This document shows, in pieces, positions 7,723 through 52,341 of a stretch of 64,000 bases of DNA (position 1 is its first letter; the number at the start of each line of letters is the position of its first letter). Source of the DNA: Minutocellus sp. GHC0000111 (lineage: Eukaryota); contig OZ361259.1 in the NCBI GenBank assembly GCA_977018835.1, forward strand, positions 3,596,001 through 3,660,000. The letters are read 5' to 3'. Below the pieces are notes generated by a model. It had not been told where the DNA came from. It did no database searches and saw only the letters and a list, made by a program, of their open reading frames with translations. Both the position numbers and the translations under genes were made by a program.

Positions 7723-8346
7723 GTTGTTGTTTGATACTGCGTAGTGCATGTTCGTATAGGATTCCATTATTTACGATACTGCATCGTACATGATATGGAG
7801 TAAAACTCATCGTTTTGGGTAATGGAGGCGTCCGATCCGAAATTGATTATCTTTTCCACGCACTAATTTCTTTGGGAAGTCTTTTGTTCGTTTCCATCAA
7901 TTCTTCGCTCGCTGAAGAAGCAAGCGAAGGATCTGGATGTGTGGGAGCATTGGACTTGCATTATATTGTATGTCAGCGACTCGTTGCTCATCTCATAGGT
8001 TTGCATATAGCGTCAAGGCATTGGCTAGAATGGAGAGAATTGAATGGAAATCGGAAGAATTGCCGGCAGAGAGAATTCTACATGTACATGTACGGTAATT
8101 CTTTTCTGTTATTTTAAATTTCATCTCTCTTTCAATACTGGCACACTTCTTAGCTACTTATTAGTAACGGTAATCAATTACAATCTTAAAATAGGTGAAG
8201 CAGCAGAGTCATCATCAGTTGCAAACGAGCCGAATGGTACCGTTACCGTTACCACCACCAACCAACCAAACCTCAGCGGCGGCGTCATGCCGTGTGCGTT
8301 GTCATCAATCAAAAGTTCCGGAAGGCGTACGTACGTATGTACGTAC

Positions 8347-8407
8347 GTACGTACATAGAGCAACAAGGAAGAGAAGACCCGGAAGTGTCTGTCCATCATC
8401 CACAGAT
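8347..8407 (+). repeat. 61-bp direct repeat, copy 1 (copy 2 at 12723-12783); possible LTR fragment
   Basis: GTACGTACATAGAGCAACAAGGAAGAGAAGACCCGGAAGTGTCTGTCCATCATCCACAGAT is identical at both sites; copy 2 lies just upstream of a Copia gag. Confidence 0.85.
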
Positions 8408-8945
8408 CAGCCTCGAAGACTCGAAGTCGAAGAACAGCAAAGATACCTCTAGGTACGCCAGAGAACGTGTTTGTGTAGCTGGCGAGAGGTAAGTCTGGAG
8501 CCTGAACTGAGTTAGGGCTGCGCTGATCTCTGCCGAGAGGAAGCAAGAGAGAGTGATGGGCGGTGCGTTTATGCATTCCTTGTCCCTATCCTGTTCTCTT
8601 CCGCGATTTTTGCAACTCTGAAAAGAGCCATCTGGGAAAGAACGATGATGCGATATTGTTTATTGAATTATGACTTGCTGCATCTGGGCTTGGTCTTCGG
8701 CACCGCCATCTGCATCTTCAGCATCCTCGTCATCTTCAAGTGCGGCTGAGAGACATGGCATCTCAGCCGCACATGTGCGATGCCATAACATGGCACTCTG
8801 TTGCCACTTTTTCGGGCACAGGCGTTAACACCAATTGCATCTAACACTGCAACACGTTTGTCTCGCTTGTTTCCCCGTCATTCCGCATTTCTATTCCTTC
8901 ATCACACAGCCAAAATAATATATCAACACCGCAACGTTACGAAGC

Positions 8946-9166
8946 ATGAAGAGCCACGCGTTTCTATTTTGCCTTGGCGCAATCATCGCCTCTGTTGATG
9001 CATTCGCAAGGCCTGTACGAGTATTTCATTGATCGGAAGCCGTAGCGTTGGCAGCGTAAGAAGCACCTCGTCGGTTGTTCATTCGCCAAGCACATCAACA
9101 ACAACGCAGTTGAATGCTGGGGCCAAGGGAGGCATCGAATTGGCGGGATTGCTGTACGACTCTACT
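8946..9166 (+). pseudogene. Truncated, frameshifted paralogue of exon 1 of the gene at 15124
   Basis: Shares ..DAFARP..SLIGSRS..HSP..TTQLNA..KGGIELAGLLYDST with 15124-15395; small insertion after 'gcaaggcct'; similarity ends abruptly at ~9166. Confidence 0.75.
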
Positions 9167-9167
9167 A

Positions 9168-12100
9168 GGTGAGACTCTTCTGTTTAGAATGGGATGATGC
9201 TCCTGGTTTCAGATGGTTTATTCAGAATGCTTTGCTTTCCCTCACAATAGGAGGGTCAGTAGGGTATCGCATAAAAGAGTGTCTAAAGTTAGCAGATCAT
9301 CGCGAGCCAGGATTTCGGCGATGCACACACTTGATATACCCACGGAAAATCACGAGGCTACCTCTCAGTCAGTTTTATGGACGCATTGCGTGATCTCATC
9401 AATTCTTGTGCTTCTTTTCTGGGCGCTTCTCTCAAAATCTGGCGATCCACATCGTGCCCTAACAATCGATTTTCTCTCTTTCTTATCTCTTGCTCTGAGT
9501 ACAGTCTATCCAATATTGCGAGCAAAAACTCAGCAGGATCGCATTGGCGGCCGAGAATGAAATTGCCATTTCCTAGGAGAGGTAATATGTCGGCCAAAGG
9601 CTGGCAGTCAGCGGGACCAGTAGGTGCTTGTAGGTATCGGGAGATCGTCGAGGACAGCGCGTTGGTGATAGGCTGGTCGCTGCGCTGGTCCTTTCCAGCC
9701 TTCAATACGTAAGCAGCCAGTTCGGGTGCTGCTGCGACGGCGCTGAGCACTGCATTCATGAAGCATACTTGCTGAAGATTGCCCTGAAAATTTACAAGGC
9801 CCTGAGGAATCCGACTGAGGTACTCGTAGATGATAGAGATATCGTTGTTCTCTGCATGGGCTTGGCGCTTGGGTGAAGAAACAAGCTCGCTTGCATCAGA
9901 TTCACCTGCAATACCTCCGCTGTCCTCGCTTAGCTTCCGCTTTGGACCTTCCGGCACCGGTGATACAGCAGCCGGCCGTTGTGTTGACATGGATGGATGG
10001 CTTGATACCAGGTCGAGCTGAGACGGTGCAATTGACTCGGACATTGCGGCTGCCGACGGATCACCAGCATCCATCTCACCAACCTTCGTCGCTGGACCAT
10101 TAGCATCTGGAGTAACAGCGGCCGGTCTTGGTGCTGAATGCTCATCTGGTTGAGAGTCAAGGGCCGGTACCCGTCGGGGAGTAAACGAATCAGATGAAGG
10201 GGCCGTGGTTGATTCGGCCCATGTGGCAATTGAAGTACAGATGGGAGACATCGGAATACACGTGCCCCCAAGGATCGGGGGCGACAGTGCAGCCAATGGG
10301 GCAGCCAATGGGGTAGGGGATATTGAAAATGGAAGGGCGGAAGATAGTGGGCTTCGATTCACATCTTCATCGTCGTCCTCCTCATCAGATTCATCGGCAA
10401 AATCTTGGAACCGGCGGCGCCGCCGTCCTATAATCTTGCCAGTAATGACGGCCGCTACTCCCAGAGCTACGGTCCCGGCGGCTCCGACAAGATTGGCAAA
10501 TGGAAAGAGCGACCCCGAGGAGGAGCGATGCTCGATACTGCATCGGCCAATACTTGCACCACCTGGCATATCCCGGAGTTCAATACTAATGGTTCTCGAA
10601 GAGCCGTCAGCAGAAGCAGGCACGGCTGCACCATGAACCGCTGATTCGCCCGCGCTGAACGACTTGCTGGTACCGATATCTGGATTGGTGTCACCAGTAC
10701 TGGCAGGGGCAGGATCATCTGCATTGCGATCCGACACCTCGGTGGTACTGATGCTGGAACCGCCGTTACCGGTAGGAGTAGACCCATCTGGATTACATGT
10801 GCATACGTGATCCGATGATTCAACATTCGTTCTGTTTCCACCAGCACTGGCAGAGGTAGGCTCATCTGTACCATCATCAGAAGATTGGCCGTCACCGATG
10901 CTCGTTGTGATGTCCCCTCTTCCGGTATCTTGCCCACTCGTTGTGGCATCGTCATTACCGATAGGAGCAGGGCCATCTGCACCATGATCCGGCGACTTGG
11001 CATTACTCGATGACATGAAATCACGAAGAGGAAGCCTCGATGCCTCCCACTCAAAATATTTGTCAGCACTGAGGCAGGCAGGGGTGGGTCTGGACTTGCA
11101 ATCTGCAAGGTCAAAATATTGCAGACGATGCTTGACTTGGCGATATTCGACCTGGTTGTAGTGGTGGGATAAATGCAAGCAGGATTGGCATTCATAGGGA
11201 TGAGATTATTGTAGATGTAAAGAATCGATAGACACAAGTGCTCGATCAACGTCATAATAAAATACATGCAACTGTGGACTCACCGGACCTGACTGAATAT
11301 TATCACCAGAAGATTCAACCACCGCGGTAGCACTTGGCGTTGGGACATTTACCGGAGCAAATTGCGCATCGGTCCCGGATGCACTTCTGCTCATCTTCCG
11401 TCGGCCGACACCCCGGTTCCTGTCCTCCGTGGCCTCAACGAAGATGGAACTAATAGCCGCCGCAAAAGGATTGTTGAAAGGCGGAGGTGTCCAACCGGCA
11501 TCTTCTACCGTATTGACGATGTGGTCTCTGCATTCACAACATAGCTCACTCCTTTCCAGGGCCGAGCCAGAGCAGCCACAACCTGAGTCAATCTGCCTCC
11601 TCCTAAGCGACTTGAGGATGTGGTGGGTGCCGGAAATTGCCTTGACACGCTTGACCAACCGGCGGGAGTAGTTCTTGGCCATTTCCTCCGCAATGCGCGG
11701 CAGTCTGCGGCCCTTTCGATGCATGAAGAATGCAATTGCCTCGGCGCCCGGGGGTAGCTCCGTACCATTCCGTATGGCGGAGAGAAACTTCTCCTCCTTG
11801 ATGAATTGTTCCATCTCCATCTTGCACAAAAGGTTCTCGACCTCCGCCTCCGCCGAAATGGAACCATTCGTCTTGCACGCGCGCTTATGATCGCTCATGG
11901 TTGGTTTGCGCTGCAGGTGTTGGAAGAGAGAGACGTATTAGTTGATGGCACAAATGGGTGAGATATTTAGCTCTGGCGACCGTCCACCACCAATAAAAGG
12001 CACAAGATATGCATGACATACGATTGTATCTTCTCCTCACCTTCTCGAGCAACTCGCGCAGCCCCTGGCTTGACGAGAGACTGGCGGACTTCAGCAGAGA

Positions 12101-12328
12101 GACCGACACGCCCGACGCGGCGGTATGCGCCGTGTCGGTATTATTATTGGGATGCACGTCCCATTTCGGACCGTTACTTCCGAGAGGTCGACGAAGTTTT
12201 GCATGTACATTCGCATTGGTATTTGCGCTTGCGCCGCCGGAGTATTTGGTGGTACCGCCGCCACCGGTCCGTCGATGGAGGCCGACGCCGACGCCCGTGC
12301 CGGATGGACCGGGGTCGGGATTGCTCAT
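9168..12328 (-). pseudogene. Multi-exon gene ending in a truncated ubiquitin-specific protease (peptidase C19-like) domain
   Basis: Cys-box GLVNFQGNLQQVCFMNAVL and GRQCDPAEFLLAILDRL in ORF 9358-11178. In-frame intron 12040-11911 joins the two upstream ORFs; a second donor lies at 11283. No His-box seen; stops and frameshifts near 9360. Confidence 0.6.
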
Positions 12329-12722
12329 TTCTCAATGGATTTGCCAGATATCAAAGGGATAGCTCCAGCAATTTGAAATAACCTTAGGCGGGCCCGCCAG
12401 CGTGCTGGCGCGCCCCGAAGGGAGCGAGCCTGCCAAGCTCTCGGCCAGGCAGGAACAGCTGGCGCATTCCTCCGCATCCGATGTCTCGGAGAGTGCCACC
12501 AAAGGCAGGCTATGACGGACGACGGAAAGACACGCTAGGCGGGAGAATAACCACTTCACAACAACTAGTGATTTGTAATTTCAAGATTGGAAAATTTGTG
12601 TAATTTTCTCTGTAACTTCACCGTAATTTTCTGTAATTTACGTAATTTGGTGAAACTTTGGTCACTCTCTGGCTAAAAAAATCTCACACAGGGGATCGGG
12701 TTACTTCGTAGTACGTGTACAT

Positions 12723-12783
12723 GTACGTACATAGAGCAACAAGGAAGAGAAGACCCGGAAGTGTCTGTCCATCATCCACAGAT
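12723..12783 (+). repeat. 61-bp direct repeat, copy 2
   Basis: Identical to 8347-8407. Confidence 0.85.
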
Positions 12784-13068
12784 GATACATCTTTTCCACC
12801 CGTGCTCGCCCCATTTCGGTTCGCGCCTCTCACCGGTTTGTCTTGGGTTCTCACTCGTCACGCAAGAAAAACCGACACATCTTCAATCGGCCAAAACGAC
12901 CGTTTCTTTCGACAATATTGGAACGACGATCCAATCCCTTCCCCGAAAGTCCTGACCAGATCGACCCATCCAATCGATCACACTTCTCTGGATCGAACCT
13001 TCTGTCGATCACACGTCTCGCAGCAACACCGCCGTGTGCTGCCTGTCTTCGCTGACTGAAACACCAGC

Positions 13069-14285
13069 GTGAATCCCGACGCAGTTTTTGGCCAACCTCT
13101 CGGCGCAGCGCCGATTCTCCCCACCAAGTTAATCACACGTATGAATGACCCAGGACAACCTCCCCAACACGAGCGTGTTGCCAAAGCGCTCAAGGAACTT
13201 CAACAAGCGGCGGCCAGCATTCCAGCAGGGGGGACAATGATGACCATAACCTCGGCCATTTGGGCCTCGTCGTCAGCGATGCCGAACACACCACCAAAAG
13301 TAACGGCCGACCACATGTGCCTCCGGCAAATCCTGGCCCCAGCCCCACCATTCCCGCCGTGGCCAATCTAGACCAACGCGATCGTGCAATCCGGGGATGT
13401 TACATCGAAAAGGGCCACTACAACTTGTACGAGCAAGTCAACACGGCGCTCAAGAATCTCCTCCTCGACTCGATCGACGCCGTCTACATCAATCATCTCG
13501 AAGATGACATGCTCGGTTTCCAGCCAGTCACCATCCGCCAAATCATCGACAGCATTACCGATCGCTACTTGAAATTCAACGAGACTCAGAAGGAGGAATT
13601 AGAGAAGCAGCTCGAGAAGCAGTGCGACGGGGGACCCATCGACACCCACATCGCCATATTCAACAAAGTCTTCAAGGCGTTTGAAACGGCCGGCGAACCC
13701 TTCACCAACAAGCAAAAGGTCTCCAAGTTCTACCGCTCCGTGCGCAGGTTCTCATTGGCAAAGAAGGCATGCGAGGACTGGGACGACAGACCGGAGGCCG
13801 AACGCACGTGGGCCAACATGCAGTCGGACTTCCGCGATTGGTATGATAAGAAGATGGCCAATACCACCACCGAAGCGGCAGGATATCATGGCGCGAATTT
13901 GGCCTCATCGGCCTCGGACGATCCATTTCTTTCTCGAGCCGATCTCCTTTTGGCTGATACCACCGAAGCCCTCAAGACCAACCAAGCCATGATGGCGAAC
14001 CTCGCCAAAAAGAGCAACGAGAAGGATGATACCATTGCCAAACTTCGCCAAGAAATAGCTTCACTCAAGGCCGAGAACCGCGTTCTGCGTGAGGGACGCA
14101 ACCATACTGGTGGCAGTGGAGGCTACCGCGGCGGTGGCCAACAGAACGGCGCCGGCCACTTCCCAGGCCAAGGTCCTAACCTCAACCGCCAGGAGAAGCG
14201 GGAACTGCAGTCGATCCTCCCCAGAGGCCATTATTGCCACACGTGCGGCTATTCGTCCAACCACCCCAGCTTTGAATGGCTTTAG
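13069..14285 (+). mobile_element. gag: Ty1/Copia (CoDi-like) LTR-retrotransposon gag remnant; pol absent
   Basis: AASIPAGG..HLGLVVS (frameshift at G-run ~13228), ALKNLLLDSIDAVYINHLED..LGF, coiled coil and C-terminal YCHTCG..H knuckle, as I recall for diatom Copia gag. Truncated just before the MITE. Confidence 0.7.
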
Positions 14286-14330
14286 GACCTCTTAGCAAGA
14301 ACAACAGCGGCCCCAAAGCAAAGATACGTA

Positions 14331-15090
14331 TATGTTAGTCCCAAAATGCGCACTGTCCCAGTTCGCGAACTGGGATCCCAGTTTGCGAACTAGGATTTAT
14401 TTATCCCAGTTTGGAAACTGGGATCACAGGCACAATCTCAGTTTGCAAACTGGGATCAATCGAGAAATAATGAATATTTAGCATGGATGATGTCGCCTTT
14501 GCTTCTCCTCACTTCATTTTTTCATAGTGAAGCAACACAGCCCAAACCTGGTCCAGACGTCCAGACGACATTAGTGCCGGAGCTGATGCTCAATAAATTG
14601 GCATTAGCTGATACAAAATACATATAGTGAATAAATAATAATATCTAGCTAGCTGCTTCTGGCAAATATAAGTCATGAACTGTACATGCATCTGTGCTAT
14701 GCCGGCATCATGTTGCTACTGTACCAGTACATGTAGCTTGCAAATTCAAGATATGATGCACAGTGCAACTTGCATTGTAGATAGATCTACCAGTACATAA
14801 TCATTGTGCATGAGCCAACACCGGCAGTAACAGTTACCATTCTGACACTTGCCGAGAATGCCAGTTTCCAAACTGGTATTCATTTTTGTTCCAGTTCGCG
14901 AACTCGTCTGGTTCCCAAATTCGGATTGGCGTGTTTATCTCAGTTTCCATTCTGGTAGTATCAGTGCGCAAACTCAGATCCTAGTTTGGGAACTGGGGCC
15001 CAGTGCGCAAACTGGGATAAATGAATCTCAGTTCGCAAACTGGGATCCCAGTTCGCGAACTGGGACAGTGCGCATTTTGGGACTAACATA
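14331..15090. mobile_element. 760-bp non-autonomous MITE with long TIRs and probable TA TSD
   Basis: TATGTTAGTCCCAAAATGCGCACTGTCCCAGTTCGCGAACTGGGATCCCAGTTTGCGAACT at the left end and its reverse complement at the right end (~60 bp perfect, ~90 bp imperfect). Internal CCCAGTT..AACTGGG subrepeats. TA at 14329-14330 and 15091-15092. Confidence 0.85.
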
Positions 15091-15123
15091 TACATGTAAT
15101 AGTCAAACAAACTACTAGTAAAC

Positions 15124-16477
15124 ATGACGAACCGCCCTTGCCACCTATTCCACCGGCCACAGTTTGTGATAGCATCCTTCTTTCTTGTAATCATCGCCTT
15201 GACAGATGCTTTCGCAAGGCCTATTTCGCTGATCGGAAGCCGCAGCTTCGGCTGCGTGAGTAGCCCTCCCGTTGGGGGCTACTCATGCCTTCCTCACATC
15301 CATTCGCCAACAACACAGTTAAACGCCAAGGGAGGCATCGAACTGGCGGGACTTCTGTACGACTCCACGTCTACTGCATTCGATTGTTGGGAGTGGTACG
15401 ATTCTCCATAATGCAAACACATCTGACTGACTCAAATTGTCCTTGATTTCTTTTTCACTATGATTTCAGGACGGCCAATTTGGGAGCACCAGCCGCGTTG
15501 GTTGCAGGAGCTGTGTTGGTGACGCTTTCGGAAACTAGAGAAACAATGCAGCCAAGAAGAAGTGATAAGCGATGGGTTCGCCTGGCCAAGCAGTGGTTTC
15601 GTTTCCAGGGTTAGGGTTACCCCCTAACCCTAACCCTAAGTGCAGAAGAGTGTCTGAAGCTAACAAATCTTGGCGATCCGGATGTCGCTGATAACTGCGA
15701 TACATAGGAATTCCTATACAAATGTGATTTTGTGATGCACCGCCAGATGAGTTAATAAATTATTGTCCGACCCACACTTTTTGTTTCATTTATTGTTTGA
15801 TGCATTGTTTATTGTGTCATCTAATCAAACCTTTCACGTAGATGTCCAGTTTCGCCCTTGAAGTTGTTTCAATCTTCGTGTCTACTGTTACTGGTACGGT
15901 ACTGCTGTCACATGGCGAGCAAGTTGCCAAGAAGGCGATAGGTTATGTGGCACCACTGGAACTGCTCCATCATCACCATGAGTTTGAGTATTTGACGATC
16001 CAAATTGGATTTTTGCAAGGCCTCTTCAACTGGCTTGTCGCCGTTGCGCTTGAACAGATCATCCCGAAAGAAAACGAAACAAAGAGTGCCCAGCGGATGA
16101 ACAAATGCATGGCCGCATGTATCGTGACGCTATGCATATGGATCCAAGGCTTCTACAACCATCAGTGAGTAGATATGCGGAGGCAGGCTGGGCGAGAAAC
16201 TTCAAAAAAAGCTTTTTTCTATGCATCAGATGGCTTACATGTACTTACTCATTGTTCTCTCTCTCCCATCAAACCAATCCCTTCATTTTTCACCAGTCTC
16301 GGCTTCTATTCAGATTACGCCCACGTTTTGAAAAGATATTCCATTCTTTTCATGAAGAGATATGTCCTCTGTTGGCCAATCCGGCCTCTGGCCCTGTTGT
16401 ACATCCCATCAACGATAGCTTCGCTGGTCTTGGCATGGAGGGCGTTCAACACCAAACCAGAAGAAGATGACGATTAG
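15124..16477 (+). pseudogene. Putative plastid-targeted multi-pass membrane protein, disrupted at 15607; exons 15124-15395, 15470-~15606, 15842-16164, 16297-16477
   Basis: Signal peptide + DAFARP; introns 1 and 3 splice in frame; exon 2 runs into telomere repeats and TAG, and I find no phase-0 GT donor for the acceptor at 15841; several hydrophobic segments. Confidence 0.6.
15607..15639. repeat. Head-to-head interstitial telomeric repeats (TTAGGG / CCCTAA)
   Basis: AGGGTTAGGGTTA-CCCCC-TAACCCTAACCCTAA: 13-bp perfect inverted repeat with a 5-nt loop. Confidence 0.85.
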
Positions 16478-16870: not shown

Positions 16871-19800
16871 TTAATCATTTTCTGCATGGCTATATTCCAG
16901 CCGATGCATAGCACCAATGAGCTTGTTGATTCCGAGGCCAATGCCTCCAAATAATGCCGTCACCAACGCTGTTCCAATTGCACCAAGCCTTGCTGGCCTC
17001 AACACACCCACCAACGCAGCCGCAAAGTACGAAATCAATCTAACTTTGCGCAAATTCTTGAGGGCAACCATGCAGTTTTTGCAGTTCTTTGTGTGCGAGT
17101 TGTAGATATCAAACACGACCTCATTATCAACCGATGGCATCGAGGGGTTATTTTGATATGGGATTCGTCCGCCAGCTTTGTTGCGAATCCAATTCCGGAA
17201 GTTGATGACGCCTTTATCGGCCGTCATTGGCAGTACGGCCTTGGTGTAGTGATACGGCTCATCATTGTCATCAAATTGGAGCGTACTATACTCCTTCTTC
17301 TCGTGCATCATGCGTTCCTGAGCATGCAAAAAGAGTGCATCTTGATTGAGAAAGAGCCCAGCGACGACATGATTCAGCCACTTGGGCATCGGCAGGAGGA
17401 ACGCCTTGAGCAGAGCGGGCACCTGTCCATCCTCACCCTTGATGACAACCTGTCGGCCAATATGGTTACAAAAGCCAGGCCTGGAAGGGGAAGAGTACAG
17501 CTCCAGAATCGACACGGCGCCTTCACCGGCGGGTGATTCAATCTTGACCAAGGATGGAGCGACAAACTCTGTCGTAGAGGTCGGTGGTACTGCAGCTCCT
17601 TCCTCGGGATTTTGCTTCACACTAATCTTGAACCCATCTTTTGTTACTTGACGAACCGTATCAATGAAAAGTGGGTTGGTATCACCGTATCGATTGCCTA
17701 CGACATTGTGGTGGCTCGATGGGACATGCATGTGGCCGAGTAGAGTGTGCCGACCTCTTCTTCTTTTCACAGTGTTCGTCGGTTGCTTGGTTTTTGCGAG
17801 CCTGCGCTTGTGGGTAATAAAATCGAGGGGGGAGCACAAGCGGCCCGCCCGCCCCAGCATCATCAGCAACGCGACGAGGAGCGCAAGCAATCCGAAGCGA
17901 CGTTTGCAATACAGGACCATCCTCAAGCTGAGATGGTGGCCTTGAACGGCGAGGCGGGACTGCCAAGAAGCAGGTTTGCGTGACTTTTCAAACAACCGCG
18001 CCCCTCTCTAGCTAGCTAACTGACCAGTCTTTCAACTGAGAGTCGGCGGACGAGCAGCAGTCCCATCTTGGTCCGTTGTTGTGTTCCACGCCCGACTCGA
18101 CTCTTATTATGGACGAGCCGATGGTATTTGGGCTGGTGGAAAGGGCACGGTGCTGCGTACGATTTTTTTGATACCATTGCTGGCGTTCTGCCCAAGTGCT
18201 CATTCGCGGCGGTCTTGGAGGAGCTGCTGGTTTTCGGTACGGGTGAACCTTGCGTCCCATTGTTGCATGGCCAGTCGATGGAGCGAGGGCCTCGGGCCGG
18301 CATGCTGCCCAATCCCCCCTCCCTCTGTTCTAGACTAGTGCATGTATTGATTGGGATTGTATGGTCGGCCGATAGTGGTATTGGCGTCGGGCAACTTGGC
18401 GTCGTCGGTCTTCGGTCGGCAATGTCCGTTGGAAATATTCCGGCGGAAATTTCTCCGACCGAAAATTTCGGCCGCGCATGCGACAGTCATGTCTCATCCC
18501 CTCACTGTCTTCTTCGACGGCCCAACCCGTATCGGACCTACCACCGCTACTACCTCCCTAGTGTGATATGAAGCTATCAAACCTTGCCGCTGCCGAGCGT
18601 CAGGCCAGTCCTGATGCCAAGCGTCGTCGGGCCCTGGCCGCGGACCGCCGCTCCCGCCTCGACGATCGCGCCCGCCTCGGCCTCGGTGATACCGCCGCTT
18701 CGAGCAAGGGCAGGATGAAGAGGACCATCTGCCTCCTTGCCTGCGTCGCTCTGCTTGCTCCCGTCGATGGGAGCATCCGTTCCGCTCCGCTCCTTCGTCG
18801 TCGAGTTCCTGCTGTTCTGCACGATACCAACGCCGCCCTTGTCGGCATTGCCGACGGGAGCAACTCATCTGCTTCGACCGACAAGGACGATTGGTATGCT
18901 AGATACCGCGACCACCATGTTGCCTCTACGACCACTCGTGGCCATCTCCGCGGTCGCAATCTCGTTTCGGAGGACGACATCATCAACGCATATGCCAAAT
19001 CGTATGCCTCGGAGATTGCTGCGGTTATCACTACCGCTGCCGGTGATGCCGGTGATAACGAGAGCTCTTCCTTCGGTCTCGCTCACATCATCGGTGGCTT
19101 CATCTTGTGGGCTGGGCTTGCAGTTTTCTTTGCTGCCGCTCTTCAGATGATGGCCACCATCTCTGCTGATGTCGACGGCCTCGAATCTCATGAACACGAT
19201 GAGGATGATGATGAGGAGGACGATGAGGACTACGATGATGAAAATGCCGAGTCGGTGGATGAGGATGCGGCTGCCCCGTCAAGGGGCACTACTAGTAATC
19301 CTGACCTCGTCAGACAGGGGTGAGTACACCCAAAAGCAACATGTATGCCATATATATCAATTGCTATGCACATGCTCAACACTCAAACATATTTTTGTGC
19401 TGCCTTTACTTCTGATTACAATTTGATTTCTCAGCTTGAAGGCTTTGTGTGAGCTTGTGTCTCCCGAGAAAGCCGACCAGCTGTACAAGACTGCTCTGCA
19501 CAACATCGAGGAGGAGAGAAAGCTGAATTCTCAAGCTGATGTTGACACCGATGCTGATACTGACGCCAACGCCGATGCCAACGCAACTGCTTCTGCTTTG
19601 ACGAACTACGATCAGCTATGCCTTCAACAAGGAAGAGACTACTTTTCAAAATACTGCAGACACCAGGAGCAAAGGGGTGTGCCAGTCATCGTCCTGCGCA
19701 ATGATTTCATCGCCATCGTCAATGAGATTGAATGCGTGACCTGTGGTTGCGAAAGCCTCGGCGGTATCGACCGGTGGTTTACCTGGCTTCCGTACATTAT

Positions 19801-22800
19801 TGGTAAACTGGTGCCAATGTGTAAGTTTTGTAACCATGGAAAGGGAAACGATCGTCCCGAGGATTTCATTCAGCTGTGCCGCGATATCGAATCAGTTTGG
19901 AAATCACCTGAGCAGAGGCAAAGGCTCGAGAAATGGCAGAAGGAGATGGTCGAAAATCCGAACGAAACTCCCACCGCTATCAGCCCTGATGACTATTTTG
20001 GCTTCCCTGATACGGTAACGGAGGAAAATTGGTAGCAACACGTCCTGACTTCATACGGTGCCGATGTCCTCAAGGCTCTTGAGGAGAAGATCACCTCGCA
20101 CAGAAGTAACAACAAGAAGCGTCAACGCGAACGCCGTGGCAGTGAAGAACGCATCAAGATACACGATGACATGACCGACTTCGAGTTTGCTCGTCGGGCT
20201 GTCGGTCGCTGCTCTGGGTGTAACAAGGTAGCAGATCCCGCCAATTGCATTTTCCTCGGCTGGGACAGCATGCACAATGATATTGGGTACACGAAGCGCA
20301 ACGCATTTGGGATGTGCTTCAGGTGCAACAACTTCAAGTTGGGCTATTTCTTCTCGACATTTGTTGTGAAAGCTATGCAAATTTCGAAATGTACCGAAAG
20401 AGTGCCCATTGCTGAGCTTCGGCAGATTGCCCCTGTCGATGAATTTGCGCTCACCGACTTTGAGAGCGAATCTTTTGTTGATGTTGCAATCACGGCCATC
20501 AAGCGAACTGGGAAGAGCTTCAACAACATTGGATCGTATCCAAGGCACATTGGCAGCATCGACAAGGCCATTGCGGAAGCCGTCGTCCGTCGGAAGGAGG
20601 AAGCCTCGCGGGCTGCAGCGTACTACCCCGACCCGAATGGCGTGGTCTGGAAGAAACGAAGATATCTGTCCTCTTGGGGGGTGATTGATGGAATTTGGCT
20701 TGAAGACGAGGATGACACCCTCTTGGAGGTTGTAGCAACTGCTCTCAACGAAGATCGCGTGTCGCTCAGCATTCAGGAAGACGGTTCTCTGGATTTCGAT
20801 CAGGAGGACATTGAAGTTATCAGACTCGATCTTGCATCAAAGGGCATCAGAAGAATGCCCAAGTCTATTGAATCAAGACTTGGAGGTCAGGTCGGCAATA
20901 TCATCAACACATCTATTGTGCTTGACGATGGCGGTTGTGACGAGGCGAAGCCGAGCGCTGCAAAGGCAGCAGATGATAACGGCACAGGCCACGACTCTCC
21001 AACCGAGCTGAAGGTCAAGTTCAAGAAGAAGCCCCGATACGTCGCCGAGCGAACAGATCAAGAATATCTTCTCAGCGTGTGGTCCCTTTCAAACCCCGAT
21101 CCATATCATCACAACGATGTGCTTGCTGCGGTCAAGAAGAAAGCCGAGTCGCTTGGAGTTGCATTTAACACAGGCAAGTCGTCTTTTCAAAACTTCCGGC
21201 GCACGTACATGTCTCGTCTCTACGACGATGGAAAACTCACACTCTACGAGAGTCTTCGGAACAGAGCATCGTTTGCTCGATGCACAGCCTGCAACAAGGT
21301 CATGCCCCGAGCCCTAAAGAAAGGACAGCTCCCGGGCGAAAGAACATATTGCACGTGCGGAGTGTATGGGCGCTTTGAGCATCTCCCCCAGGCTCCATCC
21401 GCCGCCGAGTGTCCCAATCTGGATTTTTCTTCAGCAAGCAAAGAAAAGGCCAATGCGAGAAGCAAAAAACATATGGAGACCAGCAAGAAGAAGAAGAAGA
21501 AGAAGGGTAGCAAGAAGAGTGGAAACTAATAATAAATAATACGAATACGTTTAGCGTTTGCACAATGCCACACACATGTATCATGATTACCATTGGTAGA
21601 TAACCTTTGATGTCTGTTTTAGTGGATCTCGTCTACTACGGTGGTACATGTACCTGTACTAGAGTACCGGTGCATGTGTTCAATTTCTCAGCCCCCAATG
21701 CCCCCAACCCCCAACCATGGAAAAACGGTCCGTCCGTCGACCGTCGTCCGGCACTGCCGTCACCTTTTTTCATTCTCCGCTGCCGTTCCCCCGAGTCGAG
21801 TACCACCTTAAGGTACCGCTCCACACCAGGCAGCGGAGGATATTATCCACGGTGCAATGTCGTCCCCGACGAGTTTCGACTTCTTGCCGCGCCGGCTGGA
21901 GTCGATCGGCATATCTCCCCCGAAGAAGCGCACAAAGATCGCAAACCCGGCGCTGACTGCCAATCCCAAACAGCGTCCATCTCTCCATCTTCACAACCTT
22001 CAGCCCGAACTCCTGGGTATGATTCTCACTCTCCTTGCCCCCGACATTGCCAATCCGGTCCACGAGGATTGTGGCCTTGTCGATCTCTCTCGGGTATCCA
22101 AAATGTATCGCTCCATGGCTCTTGGTGGCCATGGGTGGAAAGCCATTTGCGTTGCGAGATGGACTGATAAGGTCGGGTTCAAGGACCGGCTCGCCAAGGC
22201 CGAAAAGGAGGCTGCCGAGGAGGTCGATACAAACGAAGGCATTCTTGGTAGTTATTGGTACAGGAAATTTGGTATTGAGGAGCGGAACGCATCGAGGAAT
22301 CGCATTACGCGATCGGAACTGAACGATAAAATTTTCAGTATTCGTCTCTGGTTCTTTGCCAAATCATACCCCCCATCGGTCAAAAGAGAGAAGGGAGTCG
22401 CACCCTCTGGTCTTCATGGCGCATCCATATCTGATAATATGCGATTCCTTCCCGGCGGTCGGCAAGTATCCGGCCTACCCGAACGATTCAGTACCATGTA
22501 TTATGAGATGAATGATGAGGGAACTGTCGTCAACTTCGGTACGCCTCTGAAGAACGGTACGAACCATCTTTTGCTGTCCCTCCAAGTCCATCGTAGATCA
22601 GATTGGGGATGGGAACTTCGCTCCAATCTGTATTGTATCAGATCTATATCTGGCGCTACGAATGTGGAAGAAGTTTGGAAGGAATATACATCTTGTCTTG
22701 TGGTGGAAAAAAGGAAGGATGGCACAAAAGTCAATCGAAGGAAGGTGGAGTACAATTACAGGCAGATTCCAAATGTCGATAATCTCAAAGAATATCTCGT

Positions 22801-25036
22801 TTGGTAATACAATGCTCTGCGGATAATAGCGCATAGATGTTGCCTCGTCTTTAAGTAGTACATATCGGTATCATTGGTACATGTACACACTCATGAGCAG
22901 GGGATTTGAATCGACAATTTTAGCTAGAATTTTAGCACTCCTAGCTGGCAGACTCTCTCCCGCCATTTATTTGAATTCCTCTTGGAAGCGGAGAGCAATC
23001 ATTTCCCTTTCAATAGGGAGCAGGAGTTCGTAAACCAAGACGAACCTACAAGAAACAAGTGTTGCAATGGTGCTTGATTCCTCAAAGGAGATGACAAGTG
23101 GCCAGTTGGCTCATGCCACGAAGAAGGCAAACGAGAGAGCGGCAGCGGCAGCGGCCCACGGCAACAGTCGTGGCATCACTTCGTACTTTGCCCCTCCCCC
23201 AGCCAATGACAGTCTCCCGCCCCCGCCAGTCGAGGTTGCGGCAGCAGCAGTGGACGAGGCCGCAACCGTCGTGAATGGGGGTATGGAGAATGCCGAGATT
23301 CCGGCCGAGGCGGTCCTGGCCGAGGCGGCCCCGGCCAATGTTAATTCCGAGGAGATGGGGACCGACGCACCTGCAGCCGAACTCGGCGCCGTGGGCATCA
23401 AGGAGTACGATCACTACCAGCCACAAGTCCCTTTTCCCTCACTCCTTGCAGTTCGATGGTATTGAGCTTCCAAAGAGATTCATCTGTACGCTTTGTGGGG
23501 ACAAGGATATCCTCAAAGGGCGACTTGAGGGTGCAAATGATTCCATCTCCCTTCTCAATACCAACCGCGAGGCAGGTGGAGGGAAATCTGTCTTTGATCA
23601 GTTCTCCGCCGACTTTTGGACTGGCATGCCGCTTTATGAGGCTTGTTTGGTAGGGCTGATCCAAAGCGATGATGTTAGAAGCACTTTGGGCGAAACCAAC
23701 AAGTCTCCCAGGAACTTCCGGGCTTCTAATGATGGCCACTTCCATGGTGTCGACTACTCTCGTGCTGCTTTGGGCACCGCCGTGAAAATGAATAAGAATG
23801 TGAATAAGCAGATGAAAATGCGTAGCCTGGCCCAATACATTGGGGTGAGCTTGTCGGAGTAATTACAGCATCTCTTGCATAACATAAAACGTTCAAAATT
23901 CGTCGTGTCCTATGAAATATACTTATACTATGATAATGTGCACCATCAACCACATTCTCAAGGAACGAGTCATGCGAGTAGGGAAGCTCTCGGAAGTTCC
24001 ATGTGCCGCAAAACAACCGATCTTCATCAATCGAATCGTCCAGCTCGTGGGGTAGTTTCATCATCGGTACCTCGCTCAATGCGCTTTCCAACCGAGCATC
24101 GTCACCGCTCTCGGGCCACACCCACAGAACTCCATTTACTACCTTGGCCGGAAAGCTGTTGCATTTGGACTTGGGATTGGACTGGATTCTCATAAACTCA
24201 TCCTCCGATTGAGCTTGAGGGACGGAGCAGAGATCGGCATCGCCCGTCCACCGCCAGGCGTGATATGAGCAGAGCAGAGTGCCATCGTCCTCAACTCTTC
24301 CTTCCGATAGAGGGACCTTGCGATGGGGACAGGAATCGGCAAATACCCGCCACGTACCGTCGGCACGCTTGGCACCACGTGGACGGTCCTTCTTGGATCC
24401 AAATTCCTCCGATCGGCCCTCCACCTTGCCATCATTCCAAACGACAAGGTCCATGTTCAAGAGCTTAAAGTTCTGGGGCTTCTCCCGATCGAGAAACTCG
24501 ACAGGAATGATTGGATACCATGCCTGCAAGGTGGGATATATACGAATAAGAAAGACGAAGGTTTTGCGGTGAATTGCCTTGATTCTATTGGTCTTACCCT
24601 CAAGATGACAATTTGATAAACGTTTACGTAGACTCTATTTATACATGTATATTACAAATCAGCAAGGAATGCCGTGGGATATGCAGGTAAAGTACGTGCT
24701 CCCAACTCTACACGTAAAACCCCAAAATCTAAAACGCACCTTGAACCAGTTGAATTCGTCAGAATCAAAAGACGGAGACTCATTGACATTGACAGCACTG
24801 TCAATCGCAGGGTTGTCTACTGATACCGATGCTGCCTCACCAACATCCGTGTTTGCTGTGGGCGTTGCAATATTATGAAGGAGTGTTGGAGAGGGCAGTC
24901 GATGATGGTCAGGTCTTTGGCAGAAAAGCTGAGAGTTCGCCGCCGGCGAGTGGGGCGAGAATGCCAACGCGTAGGATGACGCAAATATGAGGCTGGAGGC
25001 CGCTGAAATGGCGACCATATTGGCAATGATCCTCAT
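16871..25036 (-). CDS. Plastid Rieske mononuclear-iron oxygenase (pheophorbide a oxygenase/Tic55/PTC52 family), split by a 6.2-kb insertion; segments 25036-24740, 24523-23936, 17725-16871
   Basis: Presequence ..ALAFSP; NWFK|AWYP across intron 24739-24524; Rieske CPH..CSYHAW; iron motif ENVVDGAH continues as VPSSHH after the insertion; C-terminal SHTKNCKNC and TM helices. Both halves are stop-free. Confidence 0.85.
18568..21529 (+). CDS. ~950-codon protein with two hydrophobic segments and two tandem HNH-like (His-Me finger) modules; intron 19320-19434; one in-frame TAG at 20033-20035
   Basis: The GG|C splice joins ORFs 18568 and 19436. ORF 20171 is in the same frame with no other stop in between. 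Modules: CVTCG..GIDR..PY..KLVPMCKFCNHGK..EDFIQLC and CSGC..GWDSMHNDIGYTKRNAFGMCFRCNNFK..FV. Lys-rich C-terminal tail. Confidence 0.7.
21857..22807 (+). CDS. F-box-like protein
   Basis: LHNLQPELLGMILTLL..LVDLSRVSKMYRSMA..WKAICVARW; intact 316-aa ORF. Confidence 0.65.
   Translation: MSSPTSFDFLPRRLESIGISPPKKRTKIANPALTANPKQRPSLHLHNLQPELLGMILTLLAPDIANPVHEDCGLVDLSRVSKMYRSMALGGHGWKAICVARWTDKVGFKDRLAKAEKEAAEEVDTNEGILGSYWYRKFGIEERNASRNRITRSELNDKIFSIRLWFFAKSYPPSVKREKGVAPSGLHGASISDNMRFLPGGRQVSGLPERFSTMYYEMNDEGTVVNFGTPLKNGTNHLLLSLQVHRRSDWGWELRSNLYCIRSISGATNVEEVWKEYTSCLVVEKRKDGTKVNRRKVEYNYRQIPNVDNLKEYLVW
23067..23862 (+). CDS. Hypothetical protein with a degenerate HNH-like C-terminus (probable short intron ~23391-23451, or a frameshift)
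   Basis: Ala/Pro-rich N-terminus; acceptor 'tccttgcag' at 23451; C-terminus FWTGMPL..RASND..DY..KNVNKQMKMRSL resembles the 'C..tG.pm..SiDR..gY..N..K' pattern. Confidence 0.45.
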
Positions 25037-25352: not shown

Positions 25353-27614
25353 TCATTCTTCCTCTTCCACCATTCGCTGCAAAAGAGCTGGTTCATCGAA
25401 TGGGTCAACAAGGAAAAAGTCATCTGGATTCAAATCGAAACCTAGGGAAATTAGAAAGTTGAGTGAAGAACGGACCCAGATTGCTTTCATCCTGGTCGAA
25501 CCGCCGTCGTTGCGCCATGTCTCCCTTGAAAAGTAGTAAGCGCTGGCTGAATCCATGAGCTTTGCGCTTGGAGCTGAAGCTAACGTCAATTCAAACCCAG
25601 AGGCGACAACAGCTCGAAGGGACTCTTTGGCCGGACCAGACAAGTATCGCACAACAAAATTACCATGACAATCAGCAGTACGTCCTCTCCCCGTCATTCT
25701 CTGGACAAAGTTTTGATCTCTAGGGACTTCGCTGGTCTTATGAATGGTGATGGCGTGGACATAGCCCCCCAAGGTGAGTAGTAAGCCATCAATGGCAGCC
25801 TCAGATCGAAAATGTTCCGTCGAACCCGGTCGATCCCTCAATGCAGAGATTCGAACAGCATCAGGGATGCAGGTGCTCCTATGCTCTGCGAGCCTAACAA
25901 CAACATTGAACGGAAAGGAGGAGCAGATTCTGCTGCATGCACGGCAACCTCCTCCTCCTGCGCAATAGACTTTCCCTAAGCCATAGTAACCATCATTGTC
26001 ACCACTGCATGCAAGGACTCCTTTCAAGTCTAGGTTTGATGGCAATGCCCCAGACTCGAAGGCGCCACAAAACTGCTCAACCAGCCCTCGAATCGCAGCC
26101 TGATCTCCTGTCCACGAGTAATATTCATAGAAAGTGTAATCATGGCGGCTTTCGCCATCCCATCGCCCAAGAAAAGCTGCTGAAAGCTTGGGGAAAGTCA
26201 CCAAAAATGGCACAATTTGAGAAACAGTTTCGTTCGAAGGGGTGTAATTGTTTCCGTCATCATCCTCAAAGAAGCAGAAGCAGTTGACCTCCTTCACACT
26301 GCGAAATCTGTGAATCAACAAACTGGTCGTCCGGCTAAGGGAAAGCTCCGACGGGTGCATTATGGTTAGAACCCGCACGTGCCCGATTGCGTCCTCGAAC
26401 ATGCTCGTGCTGGACCGGACTGCCGCCTGAATGTCGTGATACGTGACAAAGTCAAATACCGATCCCATTGCGTCCGCCGGGAGGACTGGAAGTGGTGCCG
26501 TGCAATCATCATAGGCAAGGCCGGGAACTCCTTGCAGGTTTAGGCGATATGGCAACGCGCCAGATCGAATAGAACCCCGAAAATTCTCAGTGAGCACTTG
26601 GAAGGAGTCCTCGTGGTGGTATGGGGTCACACACCGTACGGCATCGTACTCGAAGCGACCCCCGGGACTCGTACCACCAACGAAGGCCGACGAGAGATTG
26701 GGAAAGGTAATGAGGAATGGGACGATTCGAGTAGCGGCCTCGATTGATAGAATCTGGTCACCATCGGCGTCTATGCGGACCAAGCAGAGGCAGTTCACGT
26801 GCTTGACATTTGCGAATCTTCTGGTAACAGACTTGGTCATCGGGCCAGTGAACAGTTGACATTCCCGCGTAATGTTTATGGTCTTGATATGCTTGGCGGC
26901 ATCGACAGCGACGTACTTGCCAGTGCAAAGGATGTGACGTACATCCCCATACTCCATAAAGTCGAGAACGGATGCCAGCGTGGCAGCTGGAAGCTTGGCC
27001 TTGACGTTATTATTCACCTTGACGGTGGTATCAGCCGAGCTCGTGCCGCCGGTAAGGCTTCTGGTATTACTTGTAGTCGTGGGCTTATCATTGCCGGAGA
27101 CCTCATCACCGATCGAGCTGCTACTGCTGCTATTACTGTAATTAGTAGATGCGGGCACCGGCTTGGGCCGGAGAAATCCCTGGCAAAACCTCCCAAACGC
27201 GGCTGGGTCGGAACTCGTGCGAAGGTTCTGGAACCATGCCGTGCCGAGTAGTTCTGAACAGTCCAAGCCCATGCCAAAAAGGAGCGTACCGGCTGCATCG
27301 GGATGATTATTGAGAAAATTGCAGAACCACTGTTGGTTGATGATATCGTCGAAACCAACTCCTGACGTTGCGAGAGACTGGCCAGTACGGAAGGGTTCCT
27401 TGATGGCATGCTTATTCTCACCAAATTTTTCGAGCCCATCGAAGGATACCTTGGAATCGGTGGGGTTTTGATCAGCAGACGTCGCGGTAGCGGCTGATTT
27501 TTCGACACCATCTGTCAGGAGAGGTACATCTTGATGACCCTCGCCATTCGTGTTGGTACCAGGGACGGCACCTGCGCCGGCAACGGCACCGGTATCGCAG
27601 GTATCGGTCGTCAT
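25353..27614 (-). CDS. 753-aa lineage-specific protein with two tandem F-box-like/LRR-like modules
   Basis: LPAATLASVLDFMEYGDVR..RRFANVKHVNCLC..IVPFLITFPNLSSAFVGG is repeated as LPADAMGSVFDFVTYHDIQ..HRFRSVKEVNCFC..IVPFLVTFPKLSAAFLG. Confidence 0.75.
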   Translation of the reverse strand: MTTDTCDTGAVAGAGAVPGTNTNGEGHQDVPLLTDGVEKSAATATSADQNPTDSKVSFDGLEKFGENKHAIKEPFRTGQSLATSGVGFDDIINQQWFCNFLNNHPDAAGTLLFGMGLDCSELLGTAWFQNLRTSSDPAAFGRFCQGFLRPKPVPASTNYSNSSSSSSIGDEVSGNDKPTTTSNTRSLTGGTSSADTTVKVNNNVKAKLPAATLASVLDFMEYGDVRHILCTGKYVAVDAAKHIKTINITRECQLFTGPMTKSVTRRFANVKHVNCLCLVRIDADGDQILSIEAATRIVPFLITFPNLSSAFVGGTSPGGRFEYDAVRCVTPYHHEDSFQVLTENFRGSIRSGALPYRLNLQGVPGLAYDDCTAPLPVLPADAMGSVFDFVTYHDIQAAVRSSTSMFEDAIGHVRVLTIMHPSELSLSRTTSLLIHRFRSVKEVNCFCFFEDDDGNNYTPSNETVSQIVPFLVTFPKLSAAFLGRWDGESRHDYTFYEYYSWTGDQAAIRGLVEQFCGAFESGALPSNLDLKGVLACSGDNDGYYGLGKVYCAGGGGCRACSRICSSFPFNVVVRLAEHRSTCIPDAVRISALRDRPGSTEHFRSEAAIDGLLLTLGGYVHAITIHKTSEVPRDQNFVQRMTGRGRTADCHGNFVVRYLSGPAKESLRAVVASGFELTLASAPSAKLMDSASAYYFSRETWRNDGGSTRMKAIWVRSSLNFLISLGFDLNPDDFFLVDPFDEPALLQRMVEEEE

Positions 27615-27892
27615 GGTCTCGTGCTGGAATTTGAACGCCTGGGCGCGAGCAGAGGGTAAATTTTAGAATTTAGGGGCATCTTTTGGGACCTCCCTAAAGG
27701 CCGGACACAACCTCTCGCCGAAGGAGGTTTGTTCATGTTATGTTGCTTGGTCGACAAGGGTCAAACCAACAAGAGGACCTCGGCAAATTGCTTCTCATCT
27801 CTCCTTTTCAGTTTGCGTTGGTTATTCGACGGATATCAGTATCTTTTGAGAGCGCGCTGATTGACCAGAGAAATATTAATTTTCGGGACACG

Positions 27893-30238: not shown

Positions 30239-32217
30239 TTACACATATTGTCCCGCCGTCTCGACAGCATCACGGGCAAGCTGCCGCGCCGCGTCAAGAT
30301 TGGAAAGAAATTCATCGGAACTATTGATTTCATTCTCCACAAGATACATATTGACGGCCTTGTATGCAATGGATGCTTCCTCGGCGCTGTCAAAGGTGCC
30401 AATGATTCTTTCGGTGCCTCTGCGAGAAATCTTTGCCACGTACTCCCCTGTCTTGGAACCGAATCTGACTCCCCTTGGTAGATCCTTCGATGTCGATGCG
30501 GCCTTAGCAGAAGCAGGGACCTTCTTCTCGGCTGCACAAAGACATTCTGGCTTGTCCCAGGTAGTTTCGTTTGTGGCAGTATTGTAGTAGTATGGGCGGC
30601 CTGATGCTTCGTCGGTGGCCTCCTTCCAGTGGTCGTCTTCTACGGCCGTTCCTTCTTCTTCGGTGCTCTTCTCAACCTCGCGTTCCTCTATTTCTGATGG
30701 AGCTGCGCTCCTTTTCATCATCTGAGGCAGTTCCGACTTGGACTCAAACTCTTCCATCATGTCAACCTTGGAACGCTTCGATCGGCGCTGGCTTCGACGC
30801 TTGCCATCGGTGTCATCATCACTCGACTCCGCCGAATCAGAGGCACCAGCAGGATGGGCGAAGCCCGTTTCATGTCTCCTTTTATGGCGTCCGTCCGCAT
30901 TGGCGCCGGAAGCAGCGGCAGCGCACCTGCAGCGGTGGCACCGGTCGAGATCGATTGGGGCAATGTGTTCCCACCAAGGATTGGCTCACCACCAACGGCG
31001 GCGACGGCAGCGGCGGGGCGCTCGGTACTGATATCGTCATCCTGCTCCTCTACATGATGGGCGAAAGAAGCGTCGTTAGCAGCAGCAGTAGCGGCGGCGG
31101 CGGCGTCAGCAGCAGAGGCACCAGCAAGCTCAGCTCGTAGTTGAGCCATTAATCGAGCTTGCATTGTCTCCAATTTGGCCTCCAATTCGGTCTCCAATTT
31201 GGCCTCAAATTCTTCACGAGTGAAACTAATTTGACCTCCTCCGCCAGGCACCTGGTCGTCCTGTTGGGGGCCGGAATCAGTATCATCCTCGCCAGTCTTC
31301 TTCTTCTTTCCACCCCGTCCATTACGACCTCGCCGGGTGCGCTGCTGCTGGTCCTCCTCCTCCTCACTATCGTCACTACCATCCGCCTCATCATCCTTCT
31401 TCTCCTCCTCTTGTAGTCGCCTTCCTCGACGTCTCTTCTGGGCCGGAGCATCTCCGACTCCGACCGCGGCCGACGCACCACCGGCATCATCGTCGGCATC
31501 ATCGTCGTCTCCGCCTGATGCGATGAAATGATCTTCCTCCTCGTCTTCATCCTCCTCGTCCTCCTCGTGCTCTTCAAGCCCCCTGTGCCGAGGTCCGGCC
31601 TGCCGGGCTTCAGCAAGTTGGAGCCGCCGCTGGCACCGAGCCGTGTCGGCCTTCTGGGATTGGAGCTGGTCCTCAAGCTCCCTATTGCGCTCCTCAAGCT
31701 CACGTATGCGCTCATTCTTGGCCTCCAGCTCGGCCCGCAAATTTTGCACTTGCTGGTTGAGCCGATTGTTGTTTGGGGCATGCATGGCAGGTTGCTGGGG
31801 ACGCGTTTCCCGGGTGTTCTGTACCTGCTGCTGCTCCTGCTGCTGCTGCTCCTGCTGATGGAGCTGCACGACCACCGGATCGTGATCGGAGCGTTCCATG
31901 AACTGGTCGGGATGATCCCTGACCCATTTTCGGATGTTGTTGTAATGCGTGAGCGCCACATTCTTTGACCAATCAATGGCGCTGGAATTTCCTCCTGTAA
32001 CATCTCGGCAGTCATCGCCGATGTACTTGTAGACGGTGAGGTACAACAAGTCAGGGCCATCGTCCTGCTCTTCGATGTGCTCCGCAGTGTAAGAGCGATA
32101 GCTCTCCCGTGGATCTCTCTGACTACCAATAGGAAGGCAATCGACAACGTCGTTTCTGGCGACTACAAAGTTGGCCATTGCATGGTGAACACCATCTCTA
32201 ACTATGAGTTCTGCCAT
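30239..32217 (-). CDS. Coiled-coil/low-complexity protein with C-terminal WW and AP2 domains (1-nt frameshift ~30922)
   Basis: WW: WKEATDEASGRPYYYNTATNETTWDKP. AP2: LPRGVRFGSKTGEYVAKISRRGTERIIGTFDSAEEASIAY. The downstream frame is open back to ~30920. Confidence 0.7.
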
Positions 32218-35706: not shown

Positions 35707-36035
35707 GGAGTGATGGCTCGGTTGTCAATCTCGCCATTGCTTTTCGGCGGCAAATTAGTGCCACGTCATCAAGTGTAAAAAAAGAAACCAAAACCCCTCT
35801 CCCACCCTTTTGAGGTCCGTGGGGTCGACGTCCAATGGCTGGAGCCTCAGTTCGACGACCAAAGACTTCCTACATGTAAATTAGTAGAAAGACGATAGGG
35901 ACGATACATGAACTCTGTACATTCAATATTTTCCTAAATAAAAGATTACCGGCCGTATGACCCTTTCCGGCATTGCAGCAGAGGCCGTCATCGCCCCGAG
36001 GAAGTGATGGTGCCGGCATCAGTTCTCTACCGATA

Positions 36036-36411
36036 AAAAACACAACAATCAACCAAACAAACATTTTCATGCATGTCTTGGGCGTGCATCTCTGCATTTC
36101 TGGGTGGATTGGGCGACTGTGACTCTCACGGTGTGTCACTTCTCATCCGCGGCCCTTTTTTCGCGAACTCGAACACAGGTTGATTGTTTTGAATTATGCT
36201 TTCTCACACAACAACAGTCCAATCAAGCTGAAACTTTCGCAAACGTAGCGCAATGGTGTCGGCCAGCCTCGGGAATGCCCATGTCTTACCTTGCAAATGT
36301 GTAGCGGCCAAGAGCGGGGGGGTCACCATGATGAGCTTCATTCGGGAGAAAAAATGGATGGGGCGTCGGTCTTTCCGTCGTCCGTCGAGGGCCGGACAAC
36401 GCGAGCGAAGT
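36036..36411 (+). repeat. ~370-bp dispersed repeat; second copy at ~42177-42535 inside the Chapaev-like element
   Basis: Colinear high similarity from CACAACAATCAACC to ACAACGCGAGCGAAGT. Confidence 0.9.
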
Positions 36412-51988: not shown

Positions 51989-52341
51989 TCCAGATATGGT
52001 TATCCAGATAAGGTTATCCAGATAAGGTTATCCAGATAAGGTTATCCAGATAAGGTTATCCAGATAAGGTTATTCAGATAAGGTTATCCAGATAAGGTTA
52101 TCCGGATAAGGAGGTTATCCAGATAACTGTTGTCCAGATAAGGTTATCGATAACAGTTGTCCAGATACGGTTATCCAGATATGGTTATCCAGATAAGGTT
52201 ATCCAGACAAGGGTATCCAGATATGGTTATCCAGATAAGGTTATCCAGATAAGGTTATCCAGATATGGTTATGAGATTATCCAGATATGGTTATCCAGAC
52301 CAGATACATGTAAGGTTATCCAGATAAAGCTATCCAGATAA
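51989..52341. repeat. 14-bp minisatellite (GGTTATCCAGATAA)n, roughly 24 units
   Basis: Visible tandem array with variants (GATATGG, TCCGGA). Confidence 0.95.

Follow-up and report, generated by a model that had tools for sequence, protein, structure and literature searches.

We analysed 64,000 bp of DNA from Minutocellus sp. GHC0000111 (contig OZ361259.1, positions 3,596,001 to 3,660,000; hereafter the window), in which a gene for a PAO-family Rieske oxygenase is split by an insert of 6.2 kb. Light-harvesting and spliceosomal-type genes are present in the window, and we infer it to be diatom nuclear DNA. The 5′ half of the split gene matches the Rieske domain (PF00355, E 4.9e-17) and the 3′ half the PaO domain (PF08417, E 1.1e-10). 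An earlier note on this DNA had reported a His codon duplicated at both ends of the insert and a perfect open reading frame (ORF) once 6,210 bp are removed. ATG indeed stands on the plus strand at both ends, and deleting 6,210 bp in silico gave a single frame of 480 codons whose sole stop is the terminal one. The frame is not perfect, however, as a Gly codon replaces a conserved Pro two codons before the junction (Table 1).

Aligned through a full-length relative, the split codon coincides with the first His in the mononuclear-iron motif that the solved Rieske oxygenase 6wnc contains. This agrees with the claim that the insert sits at an iron-ligand His codon, the ligand role of these His residues being one that we take as given. 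The chance of striking any of the 7 metal-ligand codons among 578 is 1.2%. In having Rieske and PaO domains and the mononuclear-iron motif, the host gene resembles the PAO, PAO-like, PTC52 and TIC55 oxygenases (PMC9306834; here and below, papers cited by PMC number are quoted from the parts of their text that were accessible). We place it at the level of this family, not in a subfamily or by substrate, and the activities of PAO-like proteins are described as unknown in PMC9306834. The allele with the insert is a predicted knockout, which would likely be tolerated owing to a second allele or to dispensability of the gene.

Table 1. Features of the split oxygenase gene and its insert (window positions)
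Feature	Position	Strand	Remarks
Host oxygenase exon 1 (targeting peptide region)	24740..25036	-	From the ORF list; intron position shared with P0015, a spliced relative, and with ortholog L001
Host exon 2, 5′ half (Rieske domain, as far as the His codon)	23936..24523	-	PF00355; amino-acid identity 88% to L001, 95% to P0007
Gly codon in place of the orthologs' Pro	23942..23944	-	Two neighbouring bases changed, 5-7 nt away from the junction
His codon (3 bp), first copy	23936..23938	-	ATG on plus strand
Inserted DNA, 6,207 bp between both His codons	17729..23935		Absent from L001 and L002; host-like composition
Gene 3: orphan of ~244 aa	23067..23862	+	Probable 61-nt intron (23391-23451), from frames and coding scores; P0017, singleton
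Gene 2: orphan of 316 aa	21857..22807	+	F-box-like by eye only; P0022, singleton
Gene 1 exon 2: two zinc modules (EndoVII/HNH-like) followed by unknown domains	19435..21529	+	Premature stop at 20033-20035
Gene 1 intron, 115 nt	19320..19434	+	GT-AG, in frame
Gene 1 exon 1: a signal-like segment, one that is transmembrane-like, and an acidic tail	18568..19319	+	Called as P0018, singleton; splicing inferred
Left end of insert, non-coding or weakly coding	17729..18567		Palindrome cluster at ~18420-18490; coding scores ≤0 in all frames; fold z -2.2
Perfect 10-bp palindrome centred on the insert/host boundary	17724..17733		Target copied in the last 5 nt of the insert
His codon (3 bp), second copy	17726..17728	-	ATG on plus strand
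Host exon 2, 3′ half (PaO domain, through to the stop)	16871..17725	-	PF08417; amino-acid identity 84% to L001

Scanning JGI metagenome contigs with the 3′ half of the oxygenase, we obtained 67 candidates, which came down to two orthologous loci (L001 and L002). The gene is uninterrupted at both, with no part of the insert in either, and L001 is syntenic with the window on both flanks of the oxygenase gene. The 6.2-kb insertion is real. At the codon level the window and L001 oxygenases differ by 201 synonymous and 68 non-synonymous changes, so the gene was under purifying selection until recently. These comparisons support a recent, lineage-specific insertion into a gene previously under such selection.

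The insert is close to its surroundings in composition (tetranucleotide distance 0.011, against 0.010-0.017 for 9 other tiles). The three co-oriented genes of the earlier note are there, all on the plus strand, but their identities differ: one is an HNH gene (gene 1) and the other two are orphans. The note saw a clear spliceosomal intron in at least one of its genes, and gene 1 has a predicted in-frame GT-AG intron. Exon 1 of this gene has hydropathy maxima around residue 52 and at residues 168-200, and looks like a piece of an ordinary diatom membrane protein. Gene 2 matched no family in Pfam, PHROGs or NCBIfam, in a homolog search that covered family libraries and a cluster look-up, and has no relatives in viral contigs. 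For gene 3, whose stop lies 73 nt short of the insert's right end, viral contigs held no homolog, and its exon 2 found no close homolog among proteins of 107-342 aa or in the Atlas. Predicted folds, including that of gene 2, were uninformative (mean predicted local distance difference test scores of 36.8 and 32.8), and Foldseek returned nothing at E ≤0.001. A truncated fourth gene at the left end, considered on splice-like signals near 17770 and at 17970-18030, is not claimed because the coding scores are at or below zero. AT-centred palindromes cluster just upstream of gene 1 (18420-18490, fold z -2.2), and their motif is found once more in the window.

The two HNH-like genes of the earlier note proved to be a single decayed gene, split by the stop at 20033-20035; the homolog P0001 reads through this position with a Lys. 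The first module matches phrog_1035, endonuclease VII (PHROGs, E 1.4e-7). A profile search of 1.84 billion representative proteins gave 153 matches at E ≤0.001 (150 listed), most of them distant HNH-like proteins, while P0001, 67% identical, is the only close homolog among 5.8 billion proteins. In 182 pattern-matched modules from 147 relatives, the Arg after Asp (179/182), the first Asn (179/182) and the last Asn (181/182) are conserved. In the window gene, module 1 carries Lys in place of its first Asn, and module 2 carries Ser where the Arg should be; P0001 retains all three residues in its module 2. Because of the premature stop and the loss of one near-invariant residue per module, this copy probably encodes no working nuclease, and endonuclease-driven movement, one of the options of the earlier note, is not sustained for it. 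The gene shares the Cys4 zinc frame, the motif order and the two modules with the tandem Asp-Arg...Asn...Asn HNH-like proteins of phages and giant viruses (phrog_1035 type). It differs from them in the two lost residues and the stop, and it adds a long C-terminal half of unknown domains and a membrane-like first exon.

Transposase, recombinase and reverse transcriptase (RT) families occur in 0 of 34 scanned relatives of the HNH gene, which were picked mostly by length. Viral, JGI metagenome and prokaryote contigs held no relatives of the gene. P0001 is as far from the window gene as the neighbouring F-box gene is from that gene's counterpart in the empty-site species (67% in both cases), a distance that would fit ordinary descent at another locus. 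As side observations, P0045 is a distant relative of 656 aa that has the inter-module segment in common with the window gene and degenerate modules, and residues ~415-485 of exon 2 look Myb-like by eye only.

We searched the insert for the hallmarks of mobile DNA. Its ends have no terminal inverted repeat (TIR), long terminal repeat (LTR) or terminal hairpin, Rfam gave no RNA family match, and Pfam, PHROGs and NCBIfam gave no DDE transposase, tyrosine recombinase, RT or Rep family. Thus, what the earlier note had observed stands for the insertion, now backed by empty orthologs, and for the absent ends and enzymes, though not for the count of HNH genes. Neither end has a second copy in the window (≤4 mismatches in 20) or an exact one in viral contigs. 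The called insert proteins P0017, P0018 and P0022 form singleton clusters from one contig (1.57 Mb), and the flanking genes belong to clusters of 3, 16 and 32 members. Singletons are weak evidence here because gene calling is patchy; the window's second HNH ORF was not found among called proteins. We found no description of such a cassette in diatoms in the literature covered, most subscription journals and Repbase lying outside it.

The 3-bp duplication at the junctions is weak alone: random blunt insertion gave an ambiguity of at least 3 bp in 5.3% of 200,000 simulations. At 17728/17729, the last 5 nt of the insert mirror the first 5 nt of the host; a half-length of at least 5 arose in 0.8% of 100,000 random insertions. 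Near the other junction, Pro occupies the position of the changed Gly codon in 11/11 listed motif-spanning orthologs (15 of the 32 members of the ortholog cluster were listed) and in 2/2 cyanobacterial homologs, and the surrounding run is otherwise identical across all of these. The two changed bases mirror sequence across the site, and the change makes the empty site an imperfect palindrome (8/12 pairs, top 0.2% of positions). Cutting at a cruciform was considered and is not claimed because the hairpin of the empty site has no exceptional stability (it ranks at 9-19% among ~460 windows). Templated bases together with a double substitution would be typical of repair synthesis (PMC2895639), not of a recombinase. 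Precise site-specific recombination and precise excisability, as the earlier note had proposed, sit badly with such junctions and with a core of 3 bp, near chance.

The same codon is interrupted in a sister lineage. The closest relatives of the window oxygenase are P0007 (6 contigs) and P0016 (1 contig), at 95.4% identity versus 88.2% for L001, and 16 changes set L001 apart. Both P0007 and P0016 terminate with Asp-Pro-Ala-Gln-stop at the split His codon. Only six tetranucleotides following the first two bases of the codon yield this ending. Because three of the six are GT splice donors, a phase-2 spliceosomal intron seems the likely cause; another insertion is possible. The position is one of four registers of the window junction, a coincidence expected by chance at ~0.23%. 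The shared interruption therefore points to a single ancestral strike followed by remodelling, to a hot spot, or to a target. The insert itself has no GT or AG ends in any of the 4 junction registers. Within 30-90 nt there are 14 in-frame splice options, all adding residues. A rescue splice from the GT made by the Pro-to-Gly change would keep the iron-motif spacing, but it needs a purine-run GAG acceptor; it was set aside as not significant, as motif-keeping options arise in 38% of random inserts and in 5.6% for that donor.

Taking these observations together, we lean, with a little less than even confidence, towards the view that lineage-specific DNA was captured once, when error-prone end-joining closed a double-strand break, and not towards the action of a transposase of its own or of a partner. 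The insert would most likely be a repair scar, its mobility being conjectural. The His codon would suffer a break with staggered or hairpin ends, repair synthesis of the polymerase-theta-like alternative end-joining type would copy flanking bases, and a free or moved chromosomal fragment would be taken up, with the HNH gene as a passenger. More speculatively, the site may have been break-prone since the sister-lineage interruption (likely an intron) stood or arose there, for example when an intron-forming transposon excised. Excision of such a transposon would give duplicated target bases and hairpin-derived palindromes.

The junctions show the short duplication and the flank-templated bases expected of break repair. 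Templated insertions of 5-8 nt are a signature of polymerase-theta end-joining in Drosophila (PMC2895639), introns that Daphnia gained through repair have short direct repeats at their flanks (review PMC3443670), and transposon excision sites in rice contain fillers of 1-123 bp, with both target copies kept in 8/94 (PMC4423477). The insert has in common with these polymerase-theta products, non-homologous end-joining introns and excision fillers a short direct repeat, flank-copied bases and no element-type ends. As in Daphnia (PMC3443670), one site is interrupted in parallel in related lineages. The insert differs in carrying whole genes, in not being spliceable, and above all in length.

Several points count against break-repair capture. 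At 6.2 kb the insert is far beyond the fillers of up to 123 bp in rice (PMC4423477), and we saw no locus that could have been the donor. The junction statistics are all post hoc. The loss of no host base with 3 bp duplicated, and the non-coding ends that enclose whole, co-oriented genes, suit a discrete element. Random capture alone leaves the coincidence with the sister interruption (~0.23% by chance) unexplained. Finally, P0040 equals window 20681-20965 in 94/95 residues and then runs into a frameshift. This second near-identical record of the HNH gene could be the donor, another assembly or a second copy of an element. If repair capture is right, the locus is a natural example of end-joining moving whole intron-bearing genes to a new place in a diatom, and so a route for orphan-gene turnover; one codon interrupted twice in sister lineages also bears on the origin of new introns.

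Some of the same points suit an undescribed cargo transposon of diatoms that has no TIRs and leaves a 3-bp target duplication. The insert would then be a decayed, non-autonomous copy mobilised in trans, which we regard as possible but unlikely. Besides the zero target loss and the non-coding ends, a nuclease-family gene is aboard, the chimeric exon 1 suggests gene capture, and P0040, with its different lesion, may be another copy. In one survey, ~72% of the intron-forming elements escaped classification (PMC12130899). Shared ends were nevertheless found neither in the window nor in viral contigs, the called proteins are singletons, and the HNH gene has its single close homolog among 5.8 billion proteins. 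Templated bases with a double substitution are also atypical of transposition, insertions in rice being "generally precise" (PMC4423477).

A homing element driven by its HNH nuclease and aimed at the conserved codon appears improbable. It would play in a cell the part that spliceosomal homing introns (shintrons) play in mirusviruses, still able to splice in the sister lineage and, in the window, enlarged, no longer spliceable and in decay. The specific form of a nuclear diatom element aimed at the iron-ligand His codon, which persists in the sister lineage as a spliceosomal intron and kills the gene here as a cargo-laden cassette, strikes us as slightly more improbable again. The earlier note's idea of homing gains from the interruption of the same codon in P0007 and P0016, with its three GT donors in six tetranucleotides, and loses by the broken nuclease of this copy. 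Mirusviruses do have HNH-encoding spliceosomal introns with target-gene specificity (PMC12768974). As in these, an HNH-type gene (phrog_1035, though broken) is nested within the interruption of a conserved gene, and one site may hold differing sequences in relatives. That P0001 keeps all three conserved residues in its module 2 also favours homing. In contrast to shintrons, the insert is cellular, has no GT-AG ends and brings extra cargo, namely two unrelated genes and a membrane-type first exon. Its in-frame splice options all add residues, and motif-keeping ones are common in random inserts. Moreover, the distance of P0001 fits the species with the empty site, and nothing ties P0001 to the sister interruption. 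The accessible text of PMC12768974 reports no equivalents in eukaryotic genomes. If the specific form is true, it would be the first shintron known from a cell, or else a gene drive of natural origin in an ordinary nuclear gene. If homing in general holds, a protein-coding gene of the nucleus would harbour a selfish nuclease element, which has up to now been reported for mirusviruses only.

We consider it very doubtful that the insert derives from a known class (CryptonS, Helitron, CACTA/Harbinger, Penelope-like) with its diagnostic ends lost. The insertion is recent, and therefore such ends should not have decayed. Penelope-like, LTR and long interspersed nuclear element retroelements are marked by RT, long direct repeats or poly(A), and a hammerhead ribozyme, none of which repeat, Pfam and Rfam checks found in the insert. 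Helitrons have 5′ TC and 3′ CTRR ends, and the A-T registers give insert ends of TG..AA or TT..CA. There was no sign of the 3′ subterminal hairpin (end folds z +0.5 to +1.1) and no family match to the Rep-helicase. Helitrons also insert between A-T or T-T with no duplication (PMC10288648).

CryptonS elements are TIR-less, as are Helitrons, occur in a diatom, and have terminal direct repeats of 5-6 bp, mostly TATGG (PMC3212892). The insert is likewise stramenopile and TIR-less with a short direct repeat at each end, but the repeat is 3 bp long, the junctions are imprecise, and no CryptonS tyrosine recombinase matched in Pfam, PHROGs or NCBIfam. We also discarded a 5-bp core of the Crypton type, the alternative register leaving 4 extra bases. 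Duplications of 3 bp are made by CACTA and Harbinger (PMC4423477); the one seen here is near chance (p 0.053), and the insert has neither the TIRs nor the DDE transposase of CACTA or PIF-Harbinger elements. Replitrons, with an HUH Rep transposase and short direct terminal repeats, are given as not detected in diatoms in the accessible text of PMC10288648, and no Rep matched in Pfam or PHROGs. For each of the classes, the defining features tested, the 3-bp duplication apart, were not those of the insert. An assembly artefact is hardly credible, as it needs two independent misjoins in one codon that spare every host base and the synteny on both sides, in a window within a 1.57-Mb contig.

The surroundings of the oxygenase gene show other irregularities. 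Between it and the F-box neighbour, an orphan gene at 25353-27617 (minus strand) encodes a 753-aa protein (P0023, singleton cluster) with two F-box-like repeats. The syntenic L001 lacks it, which makes it another lineage-specific gene insertion, adjacent to the first, with junctions that are not alignable. On the other side lies a rearranged block (8326-15368), possibly another cargo element. Within it, 8981-9165 is a 70% copy of the gene start at 15189-15368, and 8326-8407 recurs at 12707-12783 (93%), the two copies enclosing a gene for a UCH peptidase (PF00443, 9358-11205), which has a stop at its 5′ junction to 11206-11937. The block also contains a gag-like-looking ORF (13149-14285). A separate observation, at 14328-15093, is an element resembling a miniature inverted-repeat transposable element, with 95-bp TIRs (94%) and internal 20-bp palindromic repeats.

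Farther away, a gene at 30239-30985 (minus strand) combines a WW domain (E 3e-12) with a weak AP2 domain. Direct repeats of 377 bp (89%) at 36035-36411 and 42176-42535, ~6 kb apart, enclose two genes as well as a tandem array of perfect 142-bp units (3 x 142 bp) at 37727-38154. Two further tandem arrays are present, one of 14-bp units at 51989-52345 (26 copies) and the other of 188-bp units at 59587-60847 (6.7 copies, 93%).

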